Shown here: positions 12,861-33,060 of the stretch, piece after piece
Numbering within the stretch: the stretch's first letter is position 1
Layout: every line of letters starts with the position of its first letter
Assembly: GCA_023142215.1 (NCBI GenBank)
Contig: JAGLJW010000013.1
Coordinates: 1 to 35,560, forward strand
Direction of reading: 5' to 3'
From: Candidatus Parcubacteria bacterium
GTDB taxonomy: Bacteria > Patescibacteriota > Patescibacteriia > Patescibacteriales > UBA12075
Length of the DNA stretch: 35,560 nucleotides
Program-made: the position numbers and the translations under genes
Notes under the pieces: model-generated
Told to the model about the DNA's origin: nothing
The model's database searches: none
Seen by the model: the letters and a program-made list of their open reading frames with translations, nothing else

Positions 12861-12886
12861 GGAAAAATTCATTTTGGATTATTTTT

Positions 12887-13466: not shown

Positions 13467-13502
13467 CTTCGCAGATAATTATTTCTGTGGAGTCTTTTTT
13501 TT
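13467..13502 (+). terminator. Intrinsic terminator-like hairpin plus T8
   Basis: CTTCGCAGA (13467-13475) pairs with TCTGTGGAG (13484-13492): 9 bp including two G-U pairs, 8-nt loop. It is followed by TC and TTTTTTTT (13495-13502). Confidence 0.45.
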
Positions 13503-13547
13503 AAATTAAATTACTAAAAAAATATGTGTTGAAAATAGTAATTTTAA

Positions 13548-13656
13548 CGTGAATTTGTGTGAAATTTATACAATATTCACGGTATATTGACAAAAAAACG
13601 TGAATATAGGCAATATTTTAGTATAATTCACGTTTATGGTTGACAAAACCGTGAAC
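13548..13656. promoter_or_regulatory. Operator-like array: CGTGAAT-N20-ATTCACG twice plus a third half-site, 51-bp period
   Basis: CGTGAAT at 13548 and 13599 and CGTGAAC at 13650 (spacing 51 and 51). Partners ATTCACG lie at 13575 and 13626, each exactly 20 nt after its half-site. The third site lies inside the promoter spacer within ACCGTGAACGGT. Confidence 0.55.
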
Positions 13657-13667
13657 GGTGCTATAAT
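13640..13667 (+). promoter_or_regulatory. Near-consensus sigma70-type promoter of the Fic gene
   Basis: TTGACA (13640-13645), 16-nt spacer, then TGcTATAAT (extended -10, 13659-13667). This is about 28 nt upstream of the ATG at 13695. Confidence 0.6.
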
Positions 13668-13694
13668 ATAAGTATTAATTATAAAATAATTATT

Positions 13695-14573
13695 ATGGCA
13701 AAACAAATAGGTATATATAAAAAAATAGATTTTCTTCGTGAAAGATATTATAAAGTGGTTATAGGCAAAGAAGCTCTTATGAAAATAATTTCTGAAACTG
13801 AGGTTGCGGAACAAGTATACAATTCTAACGCTATTGAAAATAGCACATTAACACTTGAAGAAACAGAAAAAATTCTTTTGCAGATTGATTTAGAACGATA
13901 TATTAGTGAACGAGAATTATTTGAAGCTAAAAATTTAGCTCGTGTTGTGGAATATACAAATAAGCGTGCTAAGGATCAAGAATTAACATCTGATGTTGTT
14001 TTGTTGTTACATAAAATGTTAATTTCAAATATTAGAGATGATATTGCGGGAAGGTTCAGAAATAATAATGAGTTTGTGCGAGTAGGAAACCATATAGCTC
14101 CAGCGCCACAAGAAGTTGCGTTATTAATTGAAAAAATGTTTACAGAATATAAATCCAAGAGTTCTGAAAGTATCATAAAAAGGATTGCAAAACTACATCT
14201 TAATTTTGAGTATATACATCCGTTTGTGGATGGTAATGGTCGTATTGGTAGAGTGCTTAATAATTATTTATTAATTAGAGAAGGTTTTGTGCCGATAAAC
14301 ATTAGGGTTATTGATCGCGTAGAATATTATGAAGCATTTCGTGAGTTTGATATAAAGGGCAAGACTGTTATTATGGAGGAGATTGTAGGTAAGGCTTTAA
14401 CCAATAGTTATCACAAAAGATTAGCGTATTTAGAAAGTAAAAAAATTATAACTCTTTCTGAATATGCGAAAAATAGTAAATCTTCTTTCTCAAATTTATT
14501 AAATAAAGCGAAAAGGCAAACCATTCCTGCTTTTCGTGAAAAAGGAGTTTGGAAGATTGGTGTTGAGGTTTAA
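13695..14573 (+). CDS. Fic/DOC family protein (AMPylase-type) with N-terminal inhibitory-helix motif and C-terminal excisionase-like HTH
   Basis: Canonical Fic motif HPFVDGNGRIGR. An (S/T)xxxE(G/N) motif, SNAIEN, lies upstream of it in the same chain. The C-terminus ITLSEYAKNSKSSFSNLLNKAKRQTIPAFREKGVWKIG fits the excisionase/MerR-type HTH pattern. Confidence 0.85.
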   Translation: MAKQIGIYKKIDFLRERYYKVVIGKEALMKIISETEVAEQVYNSNAIENSTLTLEETEKILLQIDLERYISERELFEAKNLARVVEYTNKRAKDQELTSDVVLLLHKMLISNIRDDIAGRFRNNNEFVRVGNHIAPAPQEVALLIEKMFTEYKSKSSESIIKRIAKLHLNFEYIHPFVDGNGRIGRVLNNYLLIREGFVPINIRVIDRVEYYEAFREFDIKGKTVIMEEIVGKALTNSYHKRLAYLESKKIITLSEYAKNSKSSFSNLLNKAKRQTIPAFREKGVWKIGVEV

Positions 14574-14621
14574 ATATTGATACAATACAATTAATATATA
14601 GATGAATTTTATTTTAAGTTT

Positions 14622-14674
14622 ATATAAACAAATAACAAAAATAAAAGTTTATTATTTGTTTATATGAATTTTTT
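14622..14674 (+). terminator. AT-rich hairpin plus T-run downstream of the Fic gene
   Basis: ATATAAACAAATAA (14622-14635) pairs perfectly with TTATTTGTTTATAT (14652-14665), then GAATTTTTT follows. Confidence 0.4.
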
Positions 14675-14711
14675 GCTAATTATAGTGAAATTTTGAAAAT
14701 GGTGTAAAGTG

Positions 14712-14740
14712 TTGACAAAGGAGCTGTATTAGTATAAACT
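14712..14740 (+). promoter_or_regulatory. Candidate promoter for the ribosomal-protein cluster
   Basis: TTGACA (14712-14717) followed by either TATAAA (14733-14738, 15-nt spacer) or TAAACT (14735-14740, 17-nt spacer). This would give a ~265-nt leader before rplC. Confidence 0.35.
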
Positions 14741-15007
14741 TGTTGTAGTGATAGTTCACTAAATAAATAAGCTTTATTAAAAGGTTGTTTTAAAAACTCT
14801 TTTAATAGATTGTATCTAAATAAAAGAAAGTATTTTAACGGCTTTAGTAAAGAAGAAAGGATTTTAAATTTCAACAGAACTAAAAAGTATTGATATGTTT
14901 TTAAAACATGTTTATTTGCTGGGTTTTGTTACTCCAGTTTTTTTGTATTAAAATCCAAATTATTGACCGCTGAAAAGTTAAATAACTTATTTAAGTCATT
15001 AGAAAAT

Positions 15008-15670
15008 ATGAAATTTATTTTAGGGAAAAAAATTGAAATGACACAAGTTTGGAAGGACGAAAAGTCAATTGCAATAACTAAAATCCAAGCCGGACCATGT
15101 GGAGTGGTTCAAGTAAAGAATGAAGAAAAAGATGGTTATAAAGCAGTTCAAATTGGTTTTGGAATTAAGAAAGAAAAGAATATTAAAAAACCACAAAAAG
15201 GACATTTAAAAGGATTAGAAAATTTTAGATATTTAAAAGAGTTCAGAATTACAGATGAGCAAGTCAAGAAAGGTGATATTATTAACGTTTCAAGTTTTGC
15301 AGTTGGTGATATTGTAAGAGTTGCAGGGACATCAAAAGGTAAAGGTTTTCAAGGTGTTGTTAAAAGATGGGGATTCGCAGGACAAATTAAGACTCACGGT
15401 AATAAAGATCAACTTAGAATGCCTGGTTCAATTGGTGCGACTGGTCCAGCTCATGTATTTAAAGGTACAAGAATGGGTGGAAGAATGGGAGGCGAAAGAG
15501 TTACAACAACAAATTTAGAAATCATTGATATAGATTTAGATAACAACATTATTTCCATTAAAGGTTCTGTACCAGGATCAAGAAATGGTTTAGTTGAAAT
15601 TAAAGGTGAAGGTGAATTGAAAGTTATTGTAAAGGAAGAAAAGAATGATAATGCGAATGCAACGAATTAA
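15008..15670 (+). CDS. rplC: 50S ribosomal protein uL3
   Basis: MKFILGKKIEMTQVW..., GKGFQGVVKRWGFAGQ. The ATG at 15008 is preferred over the listed upstream TTG at 14963. The last codons (NANATN) lie inside a repeat element. Confidence 0.93.
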   Translation: MKFILGKKIEMTQVWKDEKSIAITKIQAGPCGVVQVKNEEKDGYKAVQIGFGIKKEKNIKKPQKGHLKGLENFRYLKEFRITDEQVKKGDIINVSSFAVGDIVRVAGTSKGKGFQGVVKRWGFAGQIKTHGNKDQLRMPGSIGATGPAHVFKGTRMGGRMGGERVTTTNLEIIDIDLDNNIISIKGSVPGSRNGLVEIKGEGELKVIVKEEKNDNANATN

Positions 15671-15712
15671 TATGCGAATTCCGCGAATTAATTAAATGCT
15701 AATGATTATAAA
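15649..15712 (+). repeat. 64-nt GCGAAT-word element, copy 1 (overlaps rplC 3' end)
   Basis: TAATGCGAATGCAACGAATTAATATGCGAATTCCGCGAATTAATTAAATGCTAATGATTATAAA matches 22163-22226 at 60 of 64 positions by my manual alignment. A further partial copy lies at about 15724-15761. Confidence 0.85.
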
Positions 15713-15822
15713 ATGATAATGTAAATGCTGCGAATTAGATTAAATGCGAATGATTTATAAATTTGTAATTCGTGTAGTTATAAAAATTTGCGGAATTTGC
15801 ATATAATTCGCAGATTAGCATT
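15650..15822 (+). other. About 170-nt composite RNA hairpin spanning the whole rplC-rplD spacer
   Basis: The helices are 15671-15689 with 15785-15803 (19 bp, two G-U), 15663-15669 with 15804-15810 (7 bp), and 15650-15658 with 15814-15822 (9 positions, 1 mismatch). The rplC stop codon is inside the stem and the rplD AUG is 10 nt after the stem base. Confidence 0.6.
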
Positions 15823-15831
15823 ATAAAAAAA

Positions 15832-16491
15832 ATGAAAATTAAAGTTTACAATAAAAAAGCAGAAAAAGTTTCAGATTCTGAAATTTCAGATAAAGTTTTT
15901 GGATTAGATGTTAATGAATCTTTGATTCATCAAGCTTACGTGAGACAGATCAGCAACGAAAGACAGATTTTGGCCCATACCAAAGATAGAAGTGAAGTTA
16001 GAGGTGGTGGAGCTAAACCATGGGCACAAAAGGGAACTGGTAGAGCTAGACATGGTTCAAAACGATCTCCGATTTGGATTGGTGGTGGTGTAACTTTTGG
16101 TCCTAGCAAAGATAGGAATTTTAGTAAAAATATTAATAAGAAAATGAGACAAAAGGCATTATTGATGGTAGTTTCTGATAGGGTAAAAGATTCTGCTATG
16201 TTGGTGATGGAAGATATAAATATGGATGAATATAAGACTAAAATTTTTAATGAAATAGTTACCAGTTTTGAAAAAAAGGTAATTAAACTTGATGAGAAAA
16301 AGAAAAGAAGTATTTTAGTTATTAATGATAAAAAAGACGATAAAGTAAAAAATTCAGGACGAAATTTAACGGGAGTAAAAGTTATTAATTTAGATAATAT
16401 TAATATTGTAGATTTGTTAAAATATAGAAATTTGATAATAACACAAGAATGTGTTAAACAATTAGAAGAGAGATATGTGACAAAGAATTAA
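15832..16491 (+). CDS. rplD: 50S ribosomal protein uL4
   Basis: RGGGAKPWAQKGTGRARHGSKRSPIWIGGGVTFGP is the uL4 hallmark. Confidence 0.93.
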   Translation: MKIKVYNKKAEKVSDSEISDKVFGLDVNESLIHQAYVRQISNERQILAHTKDRSEVRGGGAKPWAQKGTGRARHGSKRSPIWIGGGVTFGPSKDRNFSKNINKKMRQKALLMVVSDRVKDSAMLVMEDINMDEYKTKIFNEIVTSFEKKVIKLDEKKKRSILVINDKKDDKVKNSGRNLTGVKVINLDNINIVDLLKYRNLIITQECVKQLEERYVTKN

Positions 16492-16525
16492 GAATTAAGA
16501 TTTAAGATTGAAGATTCGCTCCGTC

Positions 16526-16541
16526 TCCGCCAGCTGGCGGA
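16526..16541. repeat. Perfect 16-bp GC-rich palindrome TCCGCCAGCTGGCGGA
   Basis: Read directly from the sequence. It shares the core CGCCAGCTGGCG with 23518-23533, 32918-32933 and 32965-32980. The flank CTCCGCCAGCTGGCGGAYGGYGAAAAGA is shared with the 32965 copy. Confidence 0.85.
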
Positions 16542-16563
16542 TGGTGAAAAGAATTAAAATAAT

Positions 16564-16998
16564 ATGGCATTATTTGGGAAAAAAGATAAAAATAAAACTG
16601 AAGAAAAGAAAGATGTGAAAAAAGTTTCAGCGAAAAAAACTGTGGCTAAGAAAGATGCGAAAAAGATTGAAAAAGAACCTGTTAAAGCTAAAGCTAAAAC
16701 TGAAAAGAAATTTGGTACAGCTTATAAGATTTTGATAAAACCTTTGGTAACGGAAAAAGTTGCGAAAGAGACTGAATTAGGTAAGTATGTTTTTGAAGTT
16801 TCTGTTGATGCTAACAAAGTTGAAGTATCTAAGGCTATTAAAGAAGTTTATGGAATGAAAGCAGTTAAAGTAAATATTGTAAATATGGAAGGAAAAAGAA
16901 AAAGACTTGGCAGAAGTTCAGGAAGAAGAAAAGACTGGAAAAAGGCAATTGTTACTTTAGAGAAAGGAAAGAAAATTAATGTTTATGAAGGAGTTTAG
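16564..16998 (+). CDS. rplW: 50S ribosomal protein uL23 with about 55-aa Lys-rich N-terminal extension
   Basis: The core is YKILIKPLVTEKVAKETELGKYVFEV...AIKEVYGMKAVKVNIVN. An internal start cannot be excluded. Confidence 0.85.
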   Translation: MALFGKKDKNKTEEKKDVKKVSAKKTVAKKDAKKIEKEPVKAKAKTEKKFGTAYKILIKPLVTEKVAKETELGKYVFEVSVDANKVEVSKAIKEVYGMKAVKVNIVNMEGKRKRLGRSSGRRKDWKKAIVTLEKGKKINVYEGV

Positions 16999-17001
16999 AA
17001 C

Positions 17002-17038
17002 AACAATTAACACTTAACAATTAATTATTAACAATTAA
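17002..17038 (+). repeat. AACAATTAA word repeated three times with 14-nt period
   Basis: Copies at 17002, 17016 and 17030 in the rplW-rplB spacer. The same word occurs twice at 18879-18895. Confidence 0.8.
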
Positions 17039-17096
17039 TAAAAATAGTTTGCGGAGAATTTGAAAATTACGAATTATCGCAAATAATTAAAATAAG

Positions 17097-17939
17097 ATGG
17101 GAGTTAAAAAAGTTAAACCGACAACACCAGGTAGAAGAAGTGCAACCTATGATGATTTTTCAGATATTACTTCTACGAAACCAGAAAAAAGTTTGGTTAA
17201 AACAAAAAAAAGAATTAGTGGAAGAAATAATCAAGGTAGGATAACGATTAGACATAGAGGTGGTGGAGTGAAAAGAAACCTTAGAGTTATTGATTTCAAA
17301 AGAGATAAAAATGACGTTCCAGCAAGAGTAGCTTCAATTGAATACGATCCAAATAGGGGAGCTAGAATTGCATTATTATATTATAGAGATGGTGAAAAAA
17401 GATATATTGTTGCTCCGATTGATTTGAAAGTTGATGATGTTGTTGTAAGTTCAAAAGAAAAACAAGTTGAAGTGAAACCAGGAAATGCGATGCCAGTTGA
17501 GTTTATTCCAGCAGGTATTCAAATTTACAATGTTGAACTTAATCCAAACAGAGGCGGAAAAATTGCTAGAGGAGCTGGAAATAGCGTAGCAGTAATGGGA
17601 ATAGAAGGTAATTTTGCACAAATTAAGATGCCATCAGGAGAGATTAGACTTGTTAAAAAAGAATGCATGTGTACAGTCGGAAGAGTTAGTAATCCAGATA
17701 AACGATTAATTAAAATAGGTAGTGCCGGAAGAAAAAGAAAATTAGGATGGAGACCAACAGTTCGTGGTACAGCTATGAATCCAGTTGATCATCCACATGG
17801 TGGTGGTGAAGGAAAGCAATCAATTGGTATGAAACATCCAAAAACACCATGGGGACGTCCAGCATTGGGAGTAAAGACTAGAGATAAAAATTCTAAGTCA
17901 AATAAATTAATTATTCAAAGAAGAAAAAAGAGAAAATAA
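17097..17939 (+). CDS. rplB: 50S ribosomal protein uL2
   Basis: KPTTPGRR..., [17 protein letters not shown]. Confidence 0.95.
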
Positions 17940-17941
17940 CC

Positions 17942-17969
17942 ACGTAACACATAACACATAACACATAAC
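17942..17969 (+). repeat. Heptanucleotide tandem repeat (ACGTAAC, then ACATAAC x3)
   Basis: Read directly from the sequence. An inverted copy ATGTGTTATG lies at 18007-18016. The same heptamer array occurs inside der at 28245-28293 on the other strand. Confidence 0.85.
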
Positions 17970-18024
17970 AAAATTGATATTTATAATTTATTACGTGTTC
18001 CATGCTATGTGTTATGAGAGAAAT

Positions 18025-18294
18025 ATGTCTAGAAGTTTAAAAAAAGGTCCATATATTAATGAAAGATTATTGAATAAGGTTAAATCAATGAAACCTGGTG
18101 ATAAAACAGTTATTAAAACATGGGATAGATCATGTACGATAACTCCAGAAATGGTTGGTTTTACAGTTGGAGTTCATAATGGAAGAAAGCATGTTCAGGT
18201 TTATATGGTTGAAAATATGGTAGGACATAAATTAGGAGAATTTGCACCAACTAGAAAATTTGTTGGACATGGTGGCAAAAAAGCTAAAGCATAA
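18025..18294 (+). CDS. rpsS: 30S ribosomal protein uS19
   Basis: [16 protein letters not shown]..., [13 protein letters not shown]. The ATG at 18025 is preferred over the listed 17974, which reads through spacer repeats. Confidence 0.93.
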
Positions 18295-18350
18295 AAGGTA
18301 ATGCGAATAATTATAAATAGATAATTCGTGAAATTTACATTATAGAAAAT

Positions 18351-18863
18351 ATGGAAATTAAGGCTAAAGTAAAAAATATAAAAAATTCACCAAGAAAAGT
18401 TAGGCTTGTTGTTGATGTTGTACGAGGCTTAAAGGTTGGTGATGCGTTAAATCAATTGCGATTTGTTAATAAAAAGGCAGTAATTTCGGTTACAAAATTA
18501 TTAAAATCTGCTATTGCAAATGCGACTAACAATTTTGAACTTGATGAAAGTAATTTGTTTGTGAAAGAAATTAAAGTAGACGAAGGTGCGACAATGAAAA
18601 GATGGATGCCAAGGGCAAGAGGTAGAGCTACTCCGCTTAGAAAAAGAACTAGTCACATTAATATTGTTTTAGGTGAATTAGTTGATAGTGGTAAAAAAGA
18701 AGCTAAGAAGCAAGAACTTGAAGCACCAGTAAAACTTGATGAGATGGCAGGTGGAACAGATACAAAAAAGACAGGTAAGAAAAAAGAAGATACTAAAAAA
18801 ATTAAAGGACAGAAGTCAGAGAAAGGAACATCAGGTAAAATTTTTCAGAGAAAAGTAGGATAG
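18351..18863 (+). CDS. rplV: 50S ribosomal protein uL22 with about 60-aa Lys/Glu-rich C-terminal extension
   Basis: SPRKVRLVVDVVRGLKVGDALNQLRF..., RWMPRARGRATPLRKRTSHI. Confidence 0.92.
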   Translation: MEIKAKVKNIKNSPRKVRLVVDVVRGLKVGDALNQLRFVNKKAVISVTKLLKSAIANATNNFELDESNLFVKEIKVDEGATMKRWMPRARGRATPLRKRTSHINIVLGELVDSGKKEAKKQELEAPVKLDEMAGGTDTKKTGKKKEDTKKIKGQKSEKGTSGKIFQRKVG

Positions 18864-18878
18864 TAACAGTTAACTATT

Positions 18879-18895
18879 AACAATTAACAATTAAC
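18879..18895 (+). repeat. AACAATTAAC word x2 inside a bulged hairpin in the rplV-rpsC spacer
   Basis: AACAATTAACAATTAAC. The flanking AACAGTTAA and TTAACTATTGTT can pair with a 3-nt bulge. Confidence 0.7.
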
Positions 18896-18919
18896 TATTG
18901 TTTATAATCATAACAAGAT

Positions 18920-19615
18920 ATGGGTAAGAAGATAAATCCAAAAATATTTAGAATATCAGCGACAAGAGTGTGGCCATCAAAATGGTTTGCATACGGTAAG
19001 GATTATGCTAGAAAAATTGAACAGGATGTAACGATTAGAAGATATGTAACTAAAAAGTTAATTGAAGCTGGAATTGATAAAGTAGAAATTGAAAGAACTG
19101 CTAACAAAATTAATATTAATATTTATACAGCTAAGCCAGGTATTATTATTGGAAGAGGCGGAAAAGGTGTTGATGATTTAAAAAAAGAAATTCATAAAAA
19201 GTTTTTATCTCGTCCAGCAGGAATTAAGACTGGTGATATAAAATTAAATGTTTTTGAAGTTTCAAGACCAAATTTAAGTGCACAAATTATTGTTCAATCA
19301 ATGATTTTAGATATTGAAAAAAGAATGCCTTTTAAAAGGGTTATGAAACAAGTTGTAAATAGAACTGAAAGAGCTGGTGGACTAGGAATAAAAATTGTTG
19401 TTGCTGGAAGGTTAAATGGTGCAGAAATTGCTAGAAGTGAAATGTTAGTATCAGGAAAAATTCCATTATCTACACTTAGAGCTGATATTGATTATGCAAG
19501 AGGTATGGCTAGTACGATTTATGGTGCGATTGGAATTAAAGTTTGGATTTATAATGGAGAAATGAATGATAAAAAAGAATCAAAGAAAGGTGATGTAGTT
19601 GGGAAAAAAAGATAA
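18920..19615 (+). CDS. rpsC: 30S ribosomal protein uS3
   Basis: MGKKINPKIFRI...W.SKWFA, KH region IIIGRGGKGV, GRLNGAEIARSE. Confidence 0.93.
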   Translation: MGKKINPKIFRISATRVWPSKWFAYGKDYARKIEQDVTIRRYVTKKLIEAGIDKVEIERTANKININIYTAKPGIIIGRGGKGVDDLKKEIHKKFLSRPAGIKTGDIKLNVFEVSRPNLSAQIIVQSMILDIEKRMPFKRVMKQVVNRTERAGGLGIKIVVAGRLNGAEIARSEMLVSGKIPLSTLRADIDYARGMASTIYGAIGIKVWIYNGEMNDKKESKKGDVVGKKR

Positions 19616-19622
19616 TTTTGAA

Positions 19623-19710
19623 AGATTCTTGTGATAGTTAAGATTTTTAAGATTCTTGAGATAATTTTTTAAAAAAGTTGTCCTAAGAATCTTAAAAATC
19701 CTAAGAATCT
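19623..19710 (+). other. Bipartite hairpin filling the rpsC-rplP spacer
   Basis: The inner stem is a perfect 16 bp, GATTTTTAAGATTCTT (19642-19657) with AAGAATCTTAAAAATC (19685-19700). The outer stem is 8 bp, AGATTCTT (19623-19630) with AAGAATCT (19703-19710). Confidence 0.7.
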
Positions 19711-19733
19711 CAAGGTTCTTAAGTGAACAAAAT

Positions 19734-20138
19734 ATGTTAATGCCAAAGAAAACTAAATATAGAAAATCACATAAAGGTAGAAGAGGTGGAAAAGCGACTA
19801 GAAAAACTACTATTGCATTTGGAAAATTTGCTTTGAAAAGTATGGAAGCACATTGGGTTACAGCTAGACAAATTGAAGCAGCGAGAAGAGTGATAACTAG
19901 ATTCACTAAAAGGGGTGGTAAACTTTGGATTAGAATTTTTCCTGATAAGCCAATTACTGCCAAAGGCAATGAAATGCCCATGGGTAAAGGTAAGGGTGCT
20001 GTAGATCATTATGTTGCAAAGATTAGAGCTGGTGAGATTATGTTTGAACTTGAAGGCGTATCTGAGGAAATTGCAAAAGAAGCAATGCAATTGGCAGCAT
20101 ATAAAATGCCAATAAAATGTAGATTTATAAGTAAATAG
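19734..20138 (+). CDS. rplP: 50S ribosomal protein uL16
   Basis: [19 protein letters not shown]..., [13 protein letters not shown]. Confidence 0.93.
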
Positions 20139-20192
20139 CTTTAGTTTATTAGGAATAATAATATCAAAGCTAAAAGTTAATAAGCTAGAAAA

Positions 20193-20429
20193 ATGAATTT
20201 TAAAGAATTAAAAAAGAAAAAAGAAAGTGAATTACATAATTTATTAGCTGAAAGCAGAGATAAATTAAGAGAGCTAAGATTTAAAGACGCTAATAAGCAG
20301 TTAAAAACTGTTAATAAAATTAGTGAATTAAAAAAAGTAATTGCTAAAATATTGACTATATTAAATGAAAAGAAGAAGGTAGTGAATGGTTTGTCTAATA
20401 AAGTTGTTGAAACTAAAGATAGTAAGTAA
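20193..20429 (+). CDS. rpmC: 50S ribosomal protein uL29
   Basis: The KELKKKKESELHNLLAESRDKLRELRFK pattern, and its position between rplP and rpsQ. Confidence 0.85.
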   Translation: MNFKELKKKKESELHNLLAESRDKLRELRFKDANKQLKTVNKISELKKVIAKILTILNEKKKVVNGLSNKVVETKDSK

Positions 20430-20476
20430 AATTTATTTTTGTTGATTATTTATTTGAAATTATTAATTGATTAAAT

Positions 20477-20743
20477 ATGTTAAAAAAAGAAGTAAAATTA
20501 AATAAGGAAAAGGAAATAATCAGAAAGAAGTTTGATGGTATTGTTGTTAGTGATAAAATGGAAAAGACAATTGTTGTAAAAGTTGATAGCGTAAAGATTC
20601 ATTCAAAGTATAAAAAAAGATATACTGTAAGTAGAAAATATAAAGTTCATGATGAGAAAAATCAGTTTAAAATCGGTGATAAAATATCTTTTGTTGAATG
20701 TAGACCAATGTCAAAAGATAAAAGATGGAGAGTAATTAAGTAA
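20477..20743 (+). CDS. rpsQ: 30S ribosomal protein uS17
   Basis: KKFDGIVVSDKMEKTIVVKV...KYKVHDEKNQFKIGDKISFVECRPMSKDKRWRV. Confidence 0.92.
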   Translation: MLKKEVKLNKEKEIIRKKFDGIVVSDKMEKTIVVKVDSVKIHSKYKKRYTVSRKYKVHDEKNQFKIGDKISFVECRPMSKDKRWRVIK

Positions 20744-20747
20744 TAAT

Positions 20748-20776
20748 TGTAGATACGACCCGCTGGGGCGTATATG
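20748..20776 (+). repeat. GC-rich hairpin repeat, variant copy (GATACGACCCGCTGGGGCGTAT)
   Basis: ATACGACCC (20753-20761) pairs with GGGGCGTAT (20765-20773) with one mismatch. It is related to the two copies at 21171-21242. Confidence 0.75.
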
Positions 20777-20788
20777 TAAATTAAGTAT

Positions 20789-21160
20789 ATGATTCAAGTA
20801 GAGTCAAAAGTTAAAGTCGCAGATAATTCAGGTGCTAAAAAAGTGCTTTGTATTAGAGTTTTGGGTGGATATAAAAAGAGATATGCAGGAGTTGGTGATA
20901 TAATTACTTGTGCAGTAAAGGAAGCTACACCTCACACTGCTATTAAAAAAGGTGATGTTGTACATGCTGTAATTGTTAGAACTAAAAAAGAAATCAGAAG
21001 AGCGGATGGAACATACGTAAGATTTGATGAGAACGCTTGTGTGATTATTGATAAGGCTAAAAAAGAACCAAAATCAACAAGAGTTTTTGGTCCAATTGCT
21101 CGCGAAGTAAGAAGAAAAGGATTTTTCAAAATCGCTTCGCTTGCACCAGAAGTATTATAG
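20789..21160 (+). CDS. rplN: 50S ribosomal protein uL14
   Basis: [27 protein letters not shown]. Confidence 0.95.
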
Positions 21161-21170
21161 ATTAATAAAC

Positions 21171-21242
21171 CGTAGATGCGTCCCCGCTGGGGCGTATCAA
21201 ACAACAAAAAACGTAAATGCGTCCCCGCTGGGGCGTATCAAA
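21171..21242 (+). repeat. Two direct 31-nt copies of CGTARATGCGTCCCCGCTGGGGCGTATCAAA (41-nt period)
   Basis: Copies at 21171-21201 and 21212-21242 differ at one base. Each contains a 10-bp hairpin GATGCGTCCC / GGGGCGTATC (two wobble pairs) with loop CGCT. Confidence 0.9.
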
Positions 21243-21268
21243 TAATCAAATATTTACGAATTAAGAAT

Positions 21269-21616
21269 ATGAAAATAAAACGTAATGATAAAGTTAAAAT
21301 ATTAGCGGGTAAAGATAAGGGTAAAATTGGAAAAGTTTTACAGGTTTTTCCTGATGGCAATAAGGCGAGTGTTGAAGGTATTAATTTGTTAATTAAACAT
21401 TTAAGACCACAGAAGCAGGGAGAAAAAGGTCAAAGAATTGAATTTCCAGCACCAATGAATATTTCAAACTTGATGATTATTTGTCCGAAGTGTAATAAGG
21501 AAACAAGAGTTGAGTATACTATTGTTAAGAATGAAGATGATACTTCAGCAGATTCAGTACGAGTAAAAAATAAGAAATTTAGAAAATGTAAAAAATGTCA
21601 AGAAGTTATTGATTAG
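21269..21616 (+). CDS. rplX: 50S ribosomal protein uL24 with four-Cys (zinc-ribbon-like) C-terminal part
   Basis: KOW motif KVKILAGKDKGKIGKV, then CPKC...CKKC. The ATG at 21269 is preferred because the listed 21176 start reads through the GC hairpin repeats. Confidence 0.9.
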   Translation: MKIKRNDKVKILAGKDKGKIGKVLQVFPDGNKASVEGINLLIKHLRPQKQGEKGQRIEFPAPMNISNLMIICPKCNKETRVEYTIVKNEDDTSADSVRVKNKKFRKCKKCQEVID

Positions 21617-21628
21617 CATAAAGTAAAT

Positions 21629-22162
21629 ATGATTTTAAAAAAATATAAAAAAGAAATAATACCAAAGTTGAAGAAAAAGTTTGGATATAAAAATATTCAT
21701 GAAGTTCCTAAATTAATTAAAGTAGTTATTAATGTTGGATTTGGAAGACATACGAAAGAAAAAGCCTATATTAAAAATGTTGTTGATTCACTTACAAGAA
21801 TTAGTGGTCAAAAACCAATTTTAACAAAAGCTAGATTGTCAATTTCATCATTTAAAATAAGAGAAGGAATGACAATAGGTGCTTGTGTTACTTTACGTGG
21901 GACTAGGATGTATGATTTTATAGAAAAATTGGTTGGAACGACTTTTCCCAGAATCAGAGATTTTAGAGGTATTGAAGTTAAGAATGTAGATAGGACTGGT
22001 AATTTAACGGTTGGTTTTAAAGAACATTTAGCTTTTCCTGAAGTAAGACCTGATGAAGTTGATAATATATTTGGATTAGAAGTAAGTATTGCAACGACAG
22101 CCAAGAATCACGATGAAGGATTAGAATTATTTAAATTAATGGGATTTCCATTTAAGAAATAA
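21629..22162 (+). CDS. rplE: 50S ribosomal protein uL5
   Basis: VPKLIKVVINVGFG..., FPRIRDFRG..., GLEVSIATTAK. Confidence 0.93.
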   Translation: MILKKYKKEIIPKLKKKFGYKNIHEVPKLIKVVINVGFGRHTKEKAYIKNVVDSLTRISGQKPILTKARLSISSFKIREGMTIGACVTLRGTRMYDFIEKLVGTTFPRIRDFRGIEVKNVDRTGNLTVGFKEHLAFPEVRPDEVDNIFGLEVSIATTAKNHDEGLELFKLMGFPFKK

Positions 22163-22226
22163 TAATGCGAATGCAGCGAATTAATATGCGAATGCTGCGA
22201 ATTAATTAAATGCGAATGATTATAAA
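22163..22226 (+). repeat. 64-nt GCGAAT-word element, copy 2
   Basis: It starts immediately after the rplE stop codon and matches 15649-15712 at 60 of 64 positions (manual alignment). Confidence 0.85.
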
Positions 22227-22249
22227 TAATTTGCATTATAGTAAAGTAT

Positions 22250-22435
22250 ATGGCTAGAACAGCATTAATAGCAAAATCAAAGAAGACACCAAAATTTTCA
22301 ACAAGAAAAGTAAGAAGATGTTGGAAGTGTGGTAGAAATCATGGATATATGCGTGATTTTGATTTATGTCGGATTTGCTTTCGCGAATTAGCAGAAAACG
22401 GAGATCTTCCAGGAATTGTAAAATCATCTTGGTAG
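22250..22435 (+). CDS. rpsN: 30S ribosomal protein uS14, short zinc-binding (type Z) form
   Basis: 61 aa, with CWKCGR...CRICFRE and a terminal W. Confidence 0.92.
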
Positions 22436-22504
22436 ATAAATATAAAATATTTGTAGAATTTGCATATTATTGTAGATTTTCATTATAAGTTAAATTATAA
22501 AATT

Positions 22505-22918
22505 ATGACAGATCCAATTGCGGACATGCTAACAAGAATAAGAAATGCATCAGCAATCAATAAAATTGATGTAGTTTTACCTATGAGTAAGACCAAACAT
22601 GCAATTGCAAAAATTCTTAAAAAAGAAGGCTGGATTGAAGATGTTCAAATTCTTAAAGTGGACAGTAAGAAGAATAAAACAAATGCGTTTGATGAATTGA
22701 AATTGATATTGAAATATGAAGAGAATAAAAAATCAGTTTTCAAATCAATTAAGAGAGTTAGTAAACCAGGATTAAGAATTTATTCTACAAAAGATAGATT
22801 GCCAAGAGTATTAAATAATTTAGGAATTGCAATAATTTCTACTTCTTCTGGAATGATGACTAATAAAGAAGCCAGAAGAAAAGGTTTAGGTGGAGAAGTT
22901 ATTTGTGAAATATATTAG
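22505..22918 (+). CDS. rpsH: 30S ribosomal protein uS8
   Basis: MTDPIADMLTRIRNA... The ATG at 22505 is preferred over the listed 22460. Confidence 0.93.
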   Translation: MTDPIADMLTRIRNASAINKIDVVLPMSKTKHAIAKILKKEGWIEDVQILKVDSKKNKTNAFDELKLILKYEENKKSVFKSIKRVSKPGLRIYSTKDRLPRVLNNLGIAIISTSSGMMTNKEARRKGLGGEVICEIY

Positions 22919-22966
22919 AACAATGCGAATTTGCAAATTAATTTGCATCATTTGAATTATAATTTT

Positions 22967-23509
22967 ATGTCAAGATTAGGAAAATTACCAATTAAATTAT
23001 TAGATGGAGTAACAGCTAAGGTTGATAATGGTTTTATTATTGTTAAAGGACCTAAGGGTGAGTTGAAACAAGAACTATTAGATTTAGTAAAAGTTGAAAT
23101 ATTAACTGATGGTATTCAAGTTAGTGTTGATAATAAAGAAAATAAAAAAGAAAAAGCTTTTTGGGGATTGTATTGGAGCTTAATTAGAAATATGGTTACT
23201 GGTGTTACCGAAGGCTATGAAAAAAAGTTAGAAATTATTGGTGTTGGTTATAAAGCAGCTCTGGCTGGACAAAAATTGACATTGAATGTTGGATTTTCTC
23301 ATCAAGTTAATTTTGTGTTGCCAGAAGGAATTAAAGGCACAGTAGAAGGAAATATTATTACAGTAGCCGGGATTGATAAACAGTTAGTTGGTGAAACGGC
23401 TGCCAGAATTAGAAAAGTTAAAAAACCAGAACCTTATAAAGGGAAAGGTATTAAGTATATTGATGAAATAATTAGAAGAAAAGAAGGTAAGACAGCAGGG
23501 AAAGAGTAG
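22967..23509 (+). CDS. rplF: 50S ribosomal protein uL6
   Basis: MSRLGKLPIKL...VKGPKGEL..., KPEPYKGKGIKY. The ATG at 22967 is preferred over the listed 22931. Confidence 0.93.
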   Translation: MSRLGKLPIKLLDGVTAKVDNGFIIVKGPKGELKQELLDLVKVEILTDGIQVSVDNKENKKEKAFWGLYWSLIRNMVTGVTEGYEKKLEIIGVGYKAALAGQKLTLNVGFSHQVNFVLPEGIKGTVEGNIITVAGIDKQLVGETAARIRKVKKPEPYKGKGIKYIDEIIRRKEGKTAGKE

Positions 23510-23515
23510 AGTTTG

Positions 23516-23560
23516 GATTCGCCAGCTGGCGAATAGATTTAAGAATTAAGATTTAAGAAT
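23516..23560 (+). repeat. Composite repeat: palindrome TTCGCCAGCTGGCGAA plus two AGATTTAAGAAT words
   Basis: The 31-mer GATTCGCCAGCTGGCGAATAGATTTAAGAAT (23516-23546) is identical to 32916-32946. A second 12-mer lies at 23549-23560. Confidence 0.9.
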
Positions 23561-23637
23561 ATAATATTTAAAATTGAAGGTGATAATTTATTGCCTGTGC
23601 TTGAAAAGTATTTGAGCGGATATTTTTAAAGAGATTT

Positions 23638-23991
23638 ATGAATAATAAAACAAGTATTAAAACAACAAGAAGAGATAGAAGGCGAGGTAAAATTCGATCT
23701 AAAATTTCTGGTACAAGTATACGACCAAGACTTAGTGTTTTTCGTTCAAATGCAGGAATGTTTATTCAATTAATTGATGACGCAAAAGGAACAACTATTA
23801 TTGGTGTTAATATGAAGGAAATAAAAAAAGGAACTAAGATGGAAAAAGCATTTGAAATGGGAAAAGTTATTGCTAAAAAAGCATTAAAACAAAAGATTGA
23901 ATCAGTTGTTTTTGATAGAGGTGGATATAATTATCATGGTAGAGTTAAAGCAGTAGCCGATGGAGCCAGAGAGGCAGGACTCAAATTTTAA
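23638..23991 (+). CDS. rplR: 50S ribosomal protein uL18
   Basis: [24 protein letters not shown]..., [19 protein letters not shown]. Confidence 0.93.
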
Positions 23992-24010
23992 AGATTTAAG
24001 AATATTATAT

Positions 24011-24718
24011 ATGTCTGAAGAAAAAAAATCACAAAGTACTCCAGCTAAAACAGGTGGTGTAAATAATAAAACAGTTAAACCAATTGCAAAAAAGGTTGAC
24101 AATAAGGTTGGGAATGCTACAGCTAAGAGTGTTTATGGTGCAAAGAGAAGTGCAGGAAAGAAAAAACCATTTAAAAGAAAAAGAGAAAAACGAGATGATT
24201 TTGAACAAAAAATTGTTGATTTAGCACGTGTTACTCGTGTAATGGGTGGTGGTAAAAGAATGAGATTTAGAGCCTGTGTTGCCGTTGGTGATAAAAAAGG
24301 GAAAGTTGGAATTGGACTTGCAAAATCAATTGATGTTACAACAGCAATTAATAAAGCTGCAACTAATGCTAGAAAAGCGATTATTGATGTCGCTACTGTA
24401 AACGATACAATTCCGCATGAAGTATTTTTAAAATTAGGAGCTGCAAAAATATTATTAAAACCAGCTAAAAAAGGTAAAGGTGTAATTGCTGGTGGAGTTG
24501 CTCGTACTGTTTTAGAATTAGCTGGAATAAAAAATGTTACAAGTAAAATTTTAGGAACAAATAATAAAGTGAATATTGTTAAATCAGTTCTAATGGCTTT
24601 AGAAAGTATGAAGAAAGTGCCTAAAACACCAAAGACGGAAATTAAAGAAGAAGTTAAAACAGAAAAGAATACAAAAAATAAGGAAGTTGAAAAAACAACT
24701 AAAAAAGAAAATAAATAA
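24011..24718 (+). CDS. rpsE: 30S ribosomal protein uS5 with Lys-rich N- and C-terminal extensions
   Basis: The core is VDLARVTRVMGGGKRMRFRACVAVGDKKGKVGIGLAKS. The ATG at 24011 is preferred because the listed 23960 overlaps rplR. Confidence 0.92.
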   Translation: MSEEKKSQSTPAKTGGVNNKTVKPIAKKVDNKVGNATAKSVYGAKRSAGKKKPFKRKREKRDDFEQKIVDLARVTRVMGGGKRMRFRACVAVGDKKGKVGIGLAKSIDVTTAINKAATNARKAIIDVATVNDTIPHEVFLKLGAAKILLKPAKKGKGVIAGGVARTVLELAGIKNVTSKILGTNNKVNIVKSVLMALESMKKVPKTPKTEIKEEVKTEKNTKNKEVEKTTKKENK

Positions 24719-24764
24719 TTATTTCTAATAAGCTAATAAGCCACAAGCTAAAAAGCTAAATACA

Positions 24765-25202
24765 ATGTCATTATCATTAAATACAATTAAACCAGCAGAA
24801 GGTAGTACTAAAAATAGAAAAAGAATTGGGAGAGGTAATGCTTCTGGAACAGGTACTTATGCAGGAAAAGGTCAAAAAGGTCAAAAATGTAGAAGTGGTG
24901 TAAGTAATCTAAAAAGACTTGGTATGAAACAAGTATTGCTTAGAACTCCTAAACATAGAGGTTTTAAATCTTTTCATCCTAAAAATCAAGTAGTAAGTTT
25001 TGAATCGTTAAATGAGGTTTATAAAGACAAAGAGGAAGTAAATCCAGAAACTTTATTTGAAAAAAAAGTAGTCAGTACTTTAAAGGCGCCTGTTAAGATT
25101 TTAGATAACGGTGATTTAAAAGTTAAGGATTTAAAATTTAAAAATATTAAAGCCAGTAAGTCTGCTTTTGAAAAAATTAAGAAAGCAGGAGGAAAGTTTT
25201 AA
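24765..25202 (+). CDS. rplO: 50S ribosomal protein uL15
   Basis: [41 protein letters not shown]. It directly follows rpsE, with no rpmD between them. Confidence 0.92.
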
Positions 25203-25220
25203 TTAATACTCAACAATCAA

Positions 25221-26501
25221 ATGGTTTTTGATAAAATATTTCAAATTTGGAGAGTTAGAGAATTGCGAAATAGCATTTTGTTTGTTTTGGCAATGCTTGT
25301 TGTTTTTAGATTTGCGGCTAATATTCCAATTCCTGGTGTAAATAGAGAAGCTTTGGCTAATTTTTTTAGCAATTATCAAGTTTTTGAGGTAATGAGCATG
25401 TTTTCTGGTGGTGGAATGGAAAGGTTTTCTATTGTGATGATGGGTATTGCTCCGTATATTACAGCTTCAATTATTTTTCAACTTCTTGGTATGATTGTAC
25501 CAAAATTAGAAGAAATGCAAAAAGAAGAATCAGGAAGACAGAAAATTACAATGTGGACTCGTTGGTTAACAGTTCCATTGGCTGGTATGCAAGCTTTTGG
25601 TATGATTACTTTATTACGAAATTCATCATCCCAAATTCTTGGTGATATATCATTCTTGACTATGATAAGTATGATTATCGTTATCACAGCTGGAACAGTG
25701 TTTTTAATGTGGATTGGAGAACTTATTACGGAAAAGAAAATTGGAAATGGTATTTCTCTTTTGATTTTTGCTGGAATTGTTTCTGGATTACCACAAATGT
25801 TGCAAAATGCAAAGGCTCAATATTTGCCAGGTGATTTTATGATTTATGTTATATTTGCAGTCTTAGCAGTATTAACTGTTATTGGTGTTGTATATTTAAC
25901 TGAAGGTCAAAGAAATATTCCAGTACAATATGCTAAACAAATGAGAGGAAATCAGTCATATGGGGGAAGCACATCTCATTTGCCGCTTAGGGTAAATATG
26001 GCTGGAGTTATTCCAATTATTTTTGCAATATCAGTTGTAATTTTTCCTTCAATGGTTGCTCAGTTTTTTGTCGGCGCTAAAACCGCTTGGATAGCTAATT
26101 TTGCTACTTGGACGATTGACATATTTCAAAACCAATTAATTTATGGGCTTATATATTTTGTATTAGTGTTTGCGTTTACATTTTTCTATACAGAAGTAGT
26201 TTTTCATCCAAATCAAATTGCTGAAAATTTACAGAAACAAGGAGGTTTTATTCCTGGAATTAGACCAGGAAAACCAACCAGCGAATATTTATCACGCATT
26301 GCATATCGTATATTATTTGTAGGAGCATTATCGCTTAGTTGTATTGCAGTATTACCACTTGTGCTTAAAGCGTTTTATCCTCAAAATCAAGCCATAGCGC
26401 TTGGTGGAACTAGTTTATTGATTGTTGTAGCAGTGGTTATTGAAATGGTAAAACAAATTGAATCACAGTTGAGTATGAGAGAATATGATAATGTAGATTA
26501 A
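25221..26501 (+). CDS. secY: Preprotein translocase subunit SecY
   Basis: 426 aa with 10 hydrophobic segments. Motifs include LGIAPYITASIIFQLL-like (MGIAPYITASIIFQLLG) and GGFIPGIRPGKPT. Confidence 0.95.
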   Translation: MVFDKIFQIWRVRELRNSILFVLAMLVVFRFAANIPIPGVNREALANFFSNYQVFEVMSMFSGGGMERFSIVMMGIAPYITASIIFQLLGMIVPKLEEMQKEESGRQKITMWTRWLTVPLAGMQAFGMITLLRNSSSQILGDISFLTMISMIIVITAGTVFLMWIGELITEKKIGNGISLLIFAGIVSGLPQMLQNAKAQYLPGDFMIYVIFAVLAVLTVIGVVYLTEGQRNIPVQYAKQMRGNQSYGGSTSHLPLRVNMAGVIPIIFAISVVIFPSMVAQFFVGAKTAWIANFATWTIDIFQNQLIYGLIYFVLVFAFTFFYTEVVFHPNQIAENLQKQGGFIPGIRPGKPTSEYLSRIAYRILFVGALSLSCIAVLPLVLKAFYPQNQAIALGGTSLLIVVAVVIEMVKQIESQLSMREYDNVD

Positions 26502-26531: not shown

Positions 26532-26564
26532 AAAAAAAATTCGTTAGAAATAACGAATTTTTTA
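26532..26564. terminator. Bidirectional intrinsic terminator between secY and pth
   Basis: An A-run, then AATTCGTTA (26538-26546), loop GAAA, TAACGAATT (26551-26559), then a T-run. The symmetric flanks would serve both convergent genes. Confidence 0.7.
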
Positions 26565-28859: not shown

Positions 28860-28904
28860 GGTGTTTAATTATTACATTCTTAAATCTTAAACCTAATTTT
28901 AAAT

Positions 28905-31070: not shown

Positions 31071-31122
31071 TAATTTAGATTTAAGAATAAAGATTTAAGA
31101 ATAAAGAATAAAATAAAAATAT

Positions 31123-32484: not shown

Positions 32485-32511
32485 GATGTTATTGGTAACA
32501 ATAAAGATTTA

Positions 32512-32560
32512 AGATTTAAGAATAAATTAAAAATTATTTAATAATAATATTCTTAAATCT
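32512..32560 (+). other. Hairpin formed by inverted AGATTTAAGAAT words downstream of hisS
   Basis: AGATTTAAGAAT (32512-32523) and ATTCTTAAATCT (32549-32560) form a perfect 12-bp stem with a 25-nt loop. Only a weak T-run follows. Confidence 0.6.
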
Positions 32561-32606
32561 AATTTTAAATTAATTATTAAAATAAACTAGAAAGGATGGT
32601 GTTGTT

Positions 32607-32900: not shown

Positions 32901-32915
32901 GCTATAGTATAATTA

Positions 32916-32980
32916 GATTCGCCAGCTGGCGAATAGATTTAAGAATAAAGAATTAAGATTTGCCTCCGCCAGCTGGCGGA
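32916..32980 (+). repeat. Composite repeat with two CGCCAGCTGGCG palindromes and AGATTTAAGAAT words
   Basis: TTCGCCAGCTGGCGAA at 32918-32933, AGATTTAAGAAT at 32935-32946, TCCGCCAGCTGGCGGA at 32965-32980. Each half matches a spacer in the ribosomal cluster (23516 and 16521 respectively). Confidence 0.9.
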
Positions 32981-33060
32981 CGGCGAAAAGATTTAATAAT
33001 AAGATTTATATTGTTGTAATTTGTATTAGATTAATAATTTAGCAATATAATTGTATATTT

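Follow-up and report, generated by a model that had tools for sequence, protein, structure and literature searches.

Several kinds of repeats and stem-loops are known between the cistrons of operons. Stems processed by RNase III sit between cistrons, as at the R sites of the early region of phage T7, and others bracket the 16S and 23S rRNAs; cyanobacterial heptamer arrays (STRR) were reportedly described by Mazel et al. in 1990. The REP, BIME, and REPIN sequences of Proteobacteria, first described as intercistronic operon elements, are palindromic, occur in multiple copies, and affect mRNA stability (PMC3184786, PMC3116915, PMC3337134). They include palindromes tagged with GTAG or CGTC and RAYT-mobilized doublets (PMC3184786, PMC3116915, PMC3337134, PMC3733652). 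In marine Beggiatoaceae, Cyanobacteria, and Bacteroidetes, direct repeats of TAACTGA lie near the start codons of genes without a Shine-Dalgarno (SD) motif, those of ribosomal operons included; nearly all of these arrays use this one word in direct orientation, with one indirect set of 170 (MacGregor 2015, PMC4679880). Here we analyze a 35.6-kb stretch of the chromosome of a tiny, uncultured member of the Patescibacteria (contig JAGLJW010000013.1, positions 1 to 35,560; the window), in which long spacers made of repeated words separate the genes of the ribosomal protein (r-protein) cluster from rplC to secY. We found that these spacers contain small palindromic repeat modules, of a class that turns over quickly and occurs throughout a Falkowbacteria-like clade. 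The modules come and go whole, change by word steps, and copy between junctions, and they are neither intrinsic terminators, promoters, nor known RNA families. We put at roughly 55% the probability that they are REP/REPIN/heptamer-array-like palindromes acting as generic intercistronic RNA stem-loops.

The comparison with the described systems can be summarized as follows. (i) Like REP/BIME/REPIN elements, the modules are small, imperfect intergenic palindromes that also occur within operons, with several near-identical copies per genome, inverted pairs forming hairpins, and rapid turnover within genomes. The proteobacterial elements are transcribed without terminating; the modules lack terminator tails and are probably also transcribed. 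Two of the three CCCGCTGGGG hairpins carry a 5' GTAG (20749 and 21172), as in the GTAG REP superfamily (PMC3733652), whereas the word-array modules have none. Unlike REP, most modules are AT rich, their arms are tandem arrays of 7- to 9-nucleotide (nt) words, and each genome has many word families where REP elements follow a single consensus sequence, or a few, in high copy number. The REP surveys searched do not extend to Patescibacteria. (ii) As in TAACTGA and STRR arrays, tandem 7- to 9-nt words stand by the start codons of SD-less genes in r-protein operons (window arrays at 16483-16517, 17002-17038, 17949-17969, and 23535-23560, and a further one at 31077-31110), and their phylogenetic spread is patchy, like that of the TAACTGA arrays. 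TAACT(G/A)A arrays themselves were found in four relatives (L060, L005, L016, and L008; L numbers designate the sequences compared with the window), and no tandem copies of this word were found in the window. In contrast to the TAACTGA arrays, there is a lexicon of words, and a complementary array is usually added, giving a hairpin. (iii) Like RNase III processing stems, the modules form long, imperfect stems between cistrons, without a U-tail and with the base adjoining the coding ends, presumably on a single transcript; at rplN-rplX, the arms bracket a variable insert in relatives as rRNA processing stems bracket the mature RNA. Unlike those stems, the modules are built of repeated words and show unconserved positions and no RNA-strand bias. 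Full-text literature searches found no account of such modules in Patescibacteria. The original prediction, made from the letters of the window, that no system of this organization had been described was too strong in view of REP/BIME/REPIN and the TAACTGA arrays (PMC4679880). The novelty is the combination of many word families per genome, mirrored tandem-word arms, the occupation of most ribosomal junctions, and a new phylum.

Word repeats in the spacers of the ribosomal cluster

The cluster comprises 20 genes, namely, 19 r-protein genes and secY, in DNA with 29% GC and the standard genetic code; rpmD (L30) is absent, and rplC is not preceded by rpsJ. Gene starts were set by N-terminal alignment to homologues (rpsS at 18025, rpsE at 24011). 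With these starts, 16 of the 19 junctions measure 45 to 161 nt, for a sum of 1,329 nt, which reproduces the counts originally predicted (16 of 19 junctions, about 1.3 kb). Every word of the predicted lexicon was present at the junctions given for it and nearly missing from the coding DNA of the window. For GCGAAT, 12 of 20 copies sit in r-protein spacers. Copies of AACAATTAA lie at 17002, 17016, and 17030, with a 14-nt period, and again at 18879 and 18886; ACATAAC occurs three times at 17949-17969; and AAGCTAA is found at 20167, 24730, 24745, and 24753. The remaining words are CGCCAGCTGGCG (16528 and 23520), CCCGCTGGGG (20759, 21183, and 21224), and AGATTTAAGAAT (23535, 23549, and 23992), and words of the last type are sense oriented at 8 of 9 sites.

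For each spacer, 500 shuffles that preserve dinucleotides served as the reference. Within single spacers, direct 8-mer repeats numbered 87 versus 10.3 ± 4.3 in the shuffles (maximum, 27) and inverted 8-mers numbered 93 versus 24 ± 9 (maximum, 59); 8-mers common to different spacers numbered 197 versus 94 ± 15 (maximum, 134). All three counts exceed every shuffle, which bears out the idea of a shared lexicon in direct and inverted copies. The further claim that nearly every spacer forms a hairpin did not hold, since only 6 or 7 of the 16 long spacers fold clearly better than their shuffles; z values range from -6.3 at rpsC-rplP through rplC-rplD, rplN-rplX, rplF-rplR, and rplB-rpsS to -2.5 at rplW-rplB (Table 1). 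The modules have one of two builds: either tandem 7- to 9-nt words from or near the upstream stop, a short loop, and complementary words, or a short GC-rich, REP-like hairpin, partly tagged with GTAG. An A/U-rich leader of roughly 8 to 12 nt remains between module and next ATG. The rplC-rplD and rplE-rpsN spacers have in common a 69-nt segment of 93% identity (94% over 50 nt), which at rplC-rplD begins in rplC and encodes the last residues of L3. Repeat families have 2 to 5 copies each in the approximately 45 kb of genome covered by this analysis (window plus flanking contig sequence). The CGCCAGCTGGCG hairpins, compared with the copy upstream of yqeY, show one compensatory pair, U-A to C-G, in a small sample.

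Table 1. Repeat modules, spacers, and flanking signals in the window (z, folding relative to shuffles)
Feature	Position	Strand	Description
Candidate promoter (best) of rplC-secY unit	14712..14740	+	TTGACA-17 nt-TAAACT, ~270 nt upstream of rplC
rplC-rplD module	15644..15831 (spacer 15671-15831, 161 nt)	+	GCGAAT / ATTCGC / TTAGCATTAT words; long imperfect hairpin ~15648-15824, minimum free energy -50.1 kcal/mol, z -4.9; starts in rplC, encoding terminal residues NDNANATN (stop); element of family D6, identical at 93% of 69 nt to 22158-22226
rplD-rplW module	16483..16563	+	heptamer array AAGAATT/AAGATTT x5 (16483-16517), source of the rplD stop codon, then GC hairpin TCCGCCAGCTGGCGGA (~16513-16555)
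rplW-rplB spacer	16999..17096	+	TTAACAA-type array 17002-17038, then hairpin TTTGCGGAGAATTTG...ATTATCGCAAA (~17043-17088), z -2.5; hairpin also at this junction in L083, the closest relative
rplB-rpsS module	17940..18024	+	left arm CGTAAC + ACATAAC x3, right arm GTGTTAT / TTACGTG; hairpin ~17943-18016, z -2.6; folds better antisense (-29.6 vs -17.9 kcal/mol sense)
rpsS-rplV spacer	18295..18350	+	one GCGAAT...ATTCGT inverted pair, weak hairpin, z -0.4 (not significant)
rplV-rpsC spacer	18864..18919	+	TTAAC(A/T)ATTAAC array, family D10, 77% similar to 17002-17045; z -0.3
rpsC-rplP module	19616..19733	+	~45-bp stem (19622-19720) of AAGATTCTT / AAGAATCTT words, -40.4 kcal/mol, z -6.25; strongest hairpin of the window; same word family in the L083 hairpin at this junction
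rplP-rpmC spacer	20139..20192	+	AAGCT(A)A / TAGCTTT words, small hairpin, z -1.4
rpmC-rpsQ spacer	20430..20476	+	AT-only, 9% GC; structure not significant
rpsQ-rplN spacer	20744..20788	+	GC hairpin GTAGATACGACCCGCTGGGGCGTAT, GTAG-tagged (~20749-20773)
rplN-rplX spacer	21161..21268	+	two tandem 41-nt units (21167-21207 and 21208-21248), 88% identical, family D11; hairpin GCGTCCCCGCTGGGGCGT in each, tag GTAG in first and GTAA in second; z -4.4
rplE-rpsN module	22158..22249	+	second GCGAAT element copy (22158-22226), closed by TTTGCATTAT; hairpin ~22162-22239, from stop codon to 10 nt short of ATG
rpsN-rpsH spacer	22436..22504	+	ATTTGC words, small AT hairpins, z -1.2
rpsH-rplF spacer	22919..22966	+	hairpin GCGAATTTGC...ATTTGCAT (~22923-22948), z -1.1
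rplF-rplR module	23510..23637	+	GC hairpin GATTCGCCAGCTGGCGAAT (23517-23535), word array AGATTTAAGAATTAAGATTTAAGAAT (23535-23560), further structured stretch; z -2.7
rplR-rpsE spacer, 19 nt	23992..24010	+	single AGATTTAAGAAT word plus A/T leader
rpsE-rplO spacer	24719..24764	+	AAGCTAA x3, z -0.6
Likely bidirectional terminator ending the unit, after secY	26532..26563	.	AT-rich hairpin between A-runs and T-runs, z -5.5
LCP-der spacer, lexicon copy outside cluster	28860..28904	-	AAGATTTAAGAAT, sense-oriented (LCP and der on minus strand)
lepB-hisS spacer, copy outside cluster	31071..31122	+	AGATTTAAGAATAAAG words, direct repeats only; family D4
Downstream of hisS, copy outside cluster	32485..32606	+	AAGATTTAAGATTTAAGAAT, then complement ATTCTTAAATCT
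Upstream of yqeY, copy outside cluster	32913..33005	+	both GC-hairpin subtypes, TTCGCCAGCTGGCGAA and TCCGCCAGCTGGCGGA, with AGATTTAAGAAT words between; family D1; first hairpin unit 93% identical to 23513-23558 (rplF-rplR)

The feature is wider than the rplC-to-rplO spacers (15671-24764) to which it was first assigned. Its first module begins in rplC, four copies lie downstream of the cluster (Table 1), where AGATTTAAGAAT words populate the lepB-hisS, hisS-downstream, and LCP-der spacers, and the repeats appear to be a genome-wide and clade-wide phenomenon, not a property of the ribosomal cluster. In the approximately 45 kb covered, module density is much higher in this cluster than in efflux and accessory operons. 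The spacers of the efflux and SMC operons of the window measure only 6 to 29 nt, and the 9.6 kb upstream of the window (contig L085) contains mostly ordinary terminators, some SD-like motifs, and one lexicon-bearing spacer. Several accessory genes there (L085:1889-8324) have AGGAG-type SD motifs and ordinary hairpin-plus-T terminators, and no SD motif was found in any of the 20 cluster genes (window 15000-25300); there appear to be two styles of initiation region in this genome. Under a like-for-like longest-open reading frame (ORF) rule, nonribosomal co-directional junctions are longer in genomes with expanded ribosomal junctions (median, 115 versus 36 nt), and those of expanded genomes hold hairpins of like kind. 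A search with the hairpin-plus-word pattern gave no match in a collection of species-representative genomes, which does not include the metagenome-assembled genome (MAG) GCA_030637645.1, two contigs of which match the window at 99.9% identity.

Distribution and turnover among relatives

We annotated 80 related ribosomal clusters by homology. The relatives of the window carry the labels Falkowbacteria, Parcubacteria, or Patescibacteria, and in a protein search of metagenome data, the best SecY identity was 79%, to the Logan assembly L083, and the next 72%, with none above 79%. Expanded junctions, with medians of 50 to 112 nt, were found in the ten closest relatives (65 to 71% mean r-protein identity), L060, L071, and a few others, whereas most other relatives are compact (medians of 3 to 30 nt). 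An architecture like that of the window is present in at least 12 related Patescibacteria. In a rough neighbor-joining tree, the window groups with L083, L011, L004, L010, L005 to L007, L025, and L028, and L060 is an independent case of expansion. SD motifs are absent from the ribosomal genes in all 80 relatives, expanded or compact; SD loss was therefore rejected as the trigger of expansion, because compact relatives lack these motifs too.

The layout of the expanded spacers recurs: tandem 7- to 9-nt words stand at or just after the stop codon, followed by a short loop, the complementary words, and a few bases to the next ATG. In the long spacers of relatives, the medians are 1 to 2 nt from stop to stem and 8 to 9 nt from stem to ATG, and z is below -2 in 82 of 204. 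For the 60 strong hairpins, the median is 25 bp, with 30-nt arms and a 5-nt loop, and the words recur with a period of 7, 8, or 9. Word superfamilies, namely, xGA(A/T)T, AAAGTC, TTAG(C/T)T / TAACT(A/G)A, and CGTAAC, recur at nonorthologous junctions of species with 65 to 70% r-protein identity. In the closest relative, L083, the lexicon is the same and the expansion is at other junctions than in the window.

Turnover was followed in the sister species L005, L006, and L007, which differ at 17 to 35% of fourfold sites and have highly similar flanking genes. Whole modules are cleanly present or absent: the spacers of L005, L006, and L007 measure 84, 21, and 11 nt at rpsC-rplP, 8, 95, and 8 nt at rpsH-rplF, and 119, 120, and 1 nt at rpsQ-rplN, and those of L005 and L007 measure 104 versus 6 nt at rplV-rpsC and 72 versus 12 nt at rplF-rplR. 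At rplX-rplE, the module of L006 is unlike that of L005 and L007. One arm is the same in L005 and L007 apart from exactly one 7-nt unit. These differences by whole modules and single units leave some support for slippage, one of the origins first proposed. Modules were also duplicated between junctions, in L008 with 99% identity over 103 nt and likewise in L060, L071, L004, L024, and the window. Arrays often start within the last codons of the upstream gene, as would fit an array seeded by slippage of a word near the stop or a gene end displaced by the insertion of a module. The near-identical assemblies L001, L002, L085, and L086 show no indel polymorphism in the spacers.

At rplN-rplX, periodic arms (ACTCGTAAC... 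after the rplN stop and ...GTTACGAGTTACGAG before the rplX start) are kept in L005, L006, L007, L010, and L025, where they bracket a variable interior of 165 to 803 nt. This slot (L005:3630-4290, L006:2402-2833, L007:2731-3297, and L010:8847-9649; 165-nt spacer in L025) often carries a small ORF of 64 to 140 amino acids (aa) with its own SD site, followed in L005 to L007 by a terminator-like GC hairpin. The ORFs in L007 are related to those in L010. Only the arms are present in L025, and both arms and ORF are missing from L004 and L028; the small ORFs at these junctions of relatives have no Pfam match.

Constraint and possible roles of the modules

Modules retained between sister species differ little: 0 mismatches in 70 nt for L005/L007 (34% at fourfold sites), 7 in 143 nt for L005/L006 (16.6%), and 9 in 83 nt for L006/L007 (35%). 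The original prediction had held that compact, unconserved spacers in related genomes, together with uniform read-through transcription and no processing, would favor neutral expansion. The sequence comparison gave a mixed answer. Distant relatives are indeed compact (3 to 30 nt) and junction lengths are unconserved, whereas retained modules are more conserved than fourfold sites. Together with hairpins that lie between stop and start and lack terminator tails, this conservation leaves some support for RNA punctuation or stability, another role that had been suggested.

The reading that we favor, generic RNA stem-loops, would work as follows. The cluster would still be transcribed as one mRNA that starts at a promoter near 14712 and ends at the terminator behind secY; between 15000 and 26500, no comparable promoter and no terminator-like site was found. 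Within this mRNA, the modules would fold as intercistronic stem-loops that loop the insert out, keeping the stop near the next start and the initiation leader open. The longer stems, of 25 to 45 bp, may be natural substrates of RNase III and barriers to 3' exonucleases, which would make the modules generic elements of mRNA punctuation or stability and not gene-specific regulators; stems of at least about 20 bp, the length that RNase III requires, are present in about 6 modules of the window and in the 60 hairpins of relatives. As to origin, replication slippage of a stop-proximal word may have been followed by copying of a second arm through fold-back or template switching and by spread through recombination or a transposase, with insertion apparently confined to places where the A/U-rich initiation leader is spared.

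A number of observations weigh against this role. About half of the long spacers of the window fold no better than shuffles, and junction lengths are not conserved even between the window and L083, so that no junction needs its module. The short spacers of compact relatives are as conserved as the modules (L027/L029, 13 mismatches in 339 nt versus 35% at fourfold sites); module conservation may therefore reflect a general intercistronic constraint rather than one on hairpins. There is no bias of folding toward the sense strand (104 sense versus 96 antisense spacers; p = 0.58), and two window modules fold better antisense; since both strands fold equally well, the G-U signature of selection on RNA rather than on a DNA palindrome is missing. 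Among diverged paralogous copies in L008, 8 pairs are broken, 3 changes are one-sided, and none is compensatory, which looks like decay and not like maintenance of a structure.

The absence of strand bias and the uncompensated decay would be expected of selfish or neutral DNA, that is, palindromes made by slippage or template switching, or mobile in the manner of REPINs or MITEs, which build up at any harmless insertion site, with no role in RNA and a geometry (near the stop, sparing the start leader) left only by purifying selection against harmful insertions. We regard this as possible, if somewhat doubtful. It would accommodate sister species that differ in module presence or carry different modules at one junction, near-identical multicopy elements within genomes, a module that overruns and replaces the rplC C terminus, and distant relatives that manage with spacers of 3 to 30 nt. 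The 5' arms are G rich in 42 of 55 hairpins, and such a bias, being strand independent in a palindrome, points to the making of the elements and not to transcription. Less easily explained on neutral grounds are the divergence of retained modules, 3 to 30 times below that of fourfold synonymous sites, the persistence of the periodic rplN-rplX arms across five species despite a changing interior, the much higher density in the ribosomal cluster than in efflux and accessory operons, and the lack of target-site duplications in the L005/L006/L007 alignments. At the other extreme, the SD-less clade may have evolved a dedicated intercistronic "punctuation," in which selected periodic-arm stem-loops are read by a nuclease or RNA-binding protein, segment and stabilize housekeeping transcripts, and keep stop and start juxtaposed, and in which the same arms bracket small foreign ORFs in the rplN-rplX slot that are excised at the RNA level; this we consider unlikely.

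The recurrence of a few word superfamilies across species at nonorthologous junctions, the direct-only arrays that abut a start codon (31071-31122 and 23992-24010), the lack of SD motifs in the cluster, and the published precedent of TAACTGA arrays (PMC4679880) would suit recognition by a protein that binds RNA or DNA sequence specifically (S1, cold-shock, CsrA-like, or nucleoid) and tunes the translation or transcription of each cistron, a role that has been proposed for the TAACTGA arrays. This is improbable given the many words per genome, the different words of sister species at a given junction, and the fact that most arrays are paired with a complement that would mask any site bound as a single strand. 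Separate transcription of every gene, with the hairpins as terminators and the AT-rich stretch before the ATG as the promoter of a leaderless or short-leader mRNA, could draw on the missing SD motifs and on TATAAT-like strings, e.g., CATTATAG, 8 to 12 nt ahead of several ATGs. However, these strings are the 3' arms that pair with TAATAATG at the stop codon, promoter-like sites in the cluster are not in excess (80 versus 76 ± 9 expected) while canonical TTGACA-N17-TATAAT promoters exist elsewhere in the genome, among 56 strong hairpins, a T-rich tail follows only 1 and an A-rich tail 27, and orthologous junctions of sister species do without modules; per-gene promoters were thus rejected, and we give such units very little credence. 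We consider it least credible that the sequences are not spacers at all but mis-called starts, protein tails, small ORFs, or guide-RNA arrays of the TIGR/CRISPR type: the longest possible ORFs do take in part of five spacers, the r-proteins are long-tailed, and TIGR arrays are reported in Patescibacteria, but N termini align to homologues at the starts used, the spacers have stop codons in all frames, and the word periods of 7 to 9 nt differ from 36-nt TIGR units.

Assignment to known element classes gave the following results. (i) Intrinsic terminators were rejected, since no such site occurs at 15000-26500 and a single one of the 56 strong hairpins of relatives is T-tailed. (ii) Autoregulatory r-protein leaders and other Rfam families were rejected for lack of a covariance-model match; no Rfam match reached the gathering score, and the E-value mode gave only generic hairpin matches far below threshold. 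(iii) MITEs were rejected, as filled and empty sites in L005, L006, and L007 show no target-site duplication; the rplN-rplX arms around small ORFs do resemble terminal inverted repeats. With regard to the RAYT (Y1 transposase) genes associated with REP elements, Pfam scans of the nonribosomal ORFs of the window matched no transposase family. (iv) TIGR arrays were rejected; they consist of 36-nt units beside a Tas (Nop-domain) gene, and the same scans found no Tas-like match. (v) The core motifs of integron attC sites, RYYYAAC/GTTRRRY, do not match the CGTAAC words. (vi) Methylation sites of the GANTC type were dropped because they fit only the rpsC-rplP words.

Neighboring features and implications

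Besides the cluster, the window contains a block with efflux and accessory genes (GT2, patatin, HlyD, and AcrB) and the genes SMC, Fic, pth, der, LCP, lepB, hisS, yqeY, and nrdR-nrdD. In the region 12771-15007, a Fic-domain gene (13695-14573) stands upstream of rplC in place of rpsJ. It has a perfect promoter, TTGACA-N16-TATAAT (13640-13667), with operator-like CGTGAAT / ATTCACG inverted pairs (13548-13632), and is followed by a 434-nt leader region that includes the promoter-like site 14712-14740. Nothing further belongs to the cluster after secY, and the next gene is the convergent pth. Long Lys/Glu-rich extensions are present at the L23 N terminus (~50 aa; rplW 16564-16998), at the L22 C terminus (~55 aa; rplV 18351-18863), and at both ends of S5 (rpsE 24011-24718); the tail of L3 (rplC 15008-15670), long and variable in relatives, is short in the window, with terminal residues from the GCGAAT repeat. 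The compact clusters L027/L029 and L019/L046 have spacers of 10 to 44 nt that diverge by ~4 to 15%, versus 35 to 44% at fourfold sites, and compact relatives have in common an A/T-rich ...AWATATG start context, which points to strong constraint on these SD-less initiation regions.

A separate family of long GC-rich inverted repeats, GTCATTCTGAGC...GCTCAGGATGAC, occupies the pth-der spacer (27213-27296), with related forms GTCATTCCCGCGAAGGCGGGAATC and GTCATTGCGAGG; it recurs at window positions 13291-13302 and at two ribosomal junctions of L071 (6336-6421 and 6959-7106). Upstream of nrdR-nrdD are two inverted 16-nt boxes, ACGCTATATCTTGTGG (33890-33905) and CCACAAGATATAGTGT (33923-33938), which resemble the NrdR-box consensus; on this likeness, the inverted repeat would be no more than an ordinary operator. 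Two places bear on assembly. Over 20.3 kb, the window and the MAG contig L001 differ at 15 places, 12 of them in a 37-nt tract in rplP (19943-19979); the MAG version of the protein reads PDKPVTLKGGAIP there and resembles L083, and the tract could be due to recombination or to a strain-mixing assembly artifact. Positions 9833-9985, in the SMC gene, bridge two MAG contigs (DAOWGC010000020 ends at ~9985 and DAOWGC010000041 begins at ~9833); an independent ENA scaffold also ends there, and mismatches accumulate where the contigs end. Assemblies break recurrently at this place. The repeats themselves are likely to cause breaks and misjoins in metagenome assemblies and can mislead gene callers, through extended ORFs and altered C termini as in rplC.

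Few known operons are as compact and conserved as the ribosomal protein clusters, which serve as standard markers for the phylogeny and binning of Patescibacteria, and one lineage tolerates, and partly conserves, hairpin modules of 50 to 200 nt at most ribosomal junctions. The modules carry the phenomena known from REP elements and heptamer arrays into a new phylum, and the periodic build of their arms is unusual. Their gain and loss between sister species provide a natural system in which to watch such elements being born. They raise the question of whether polycistronic expression in very small, SD-less genomes proceeds via processing, stability, or reinitiation.

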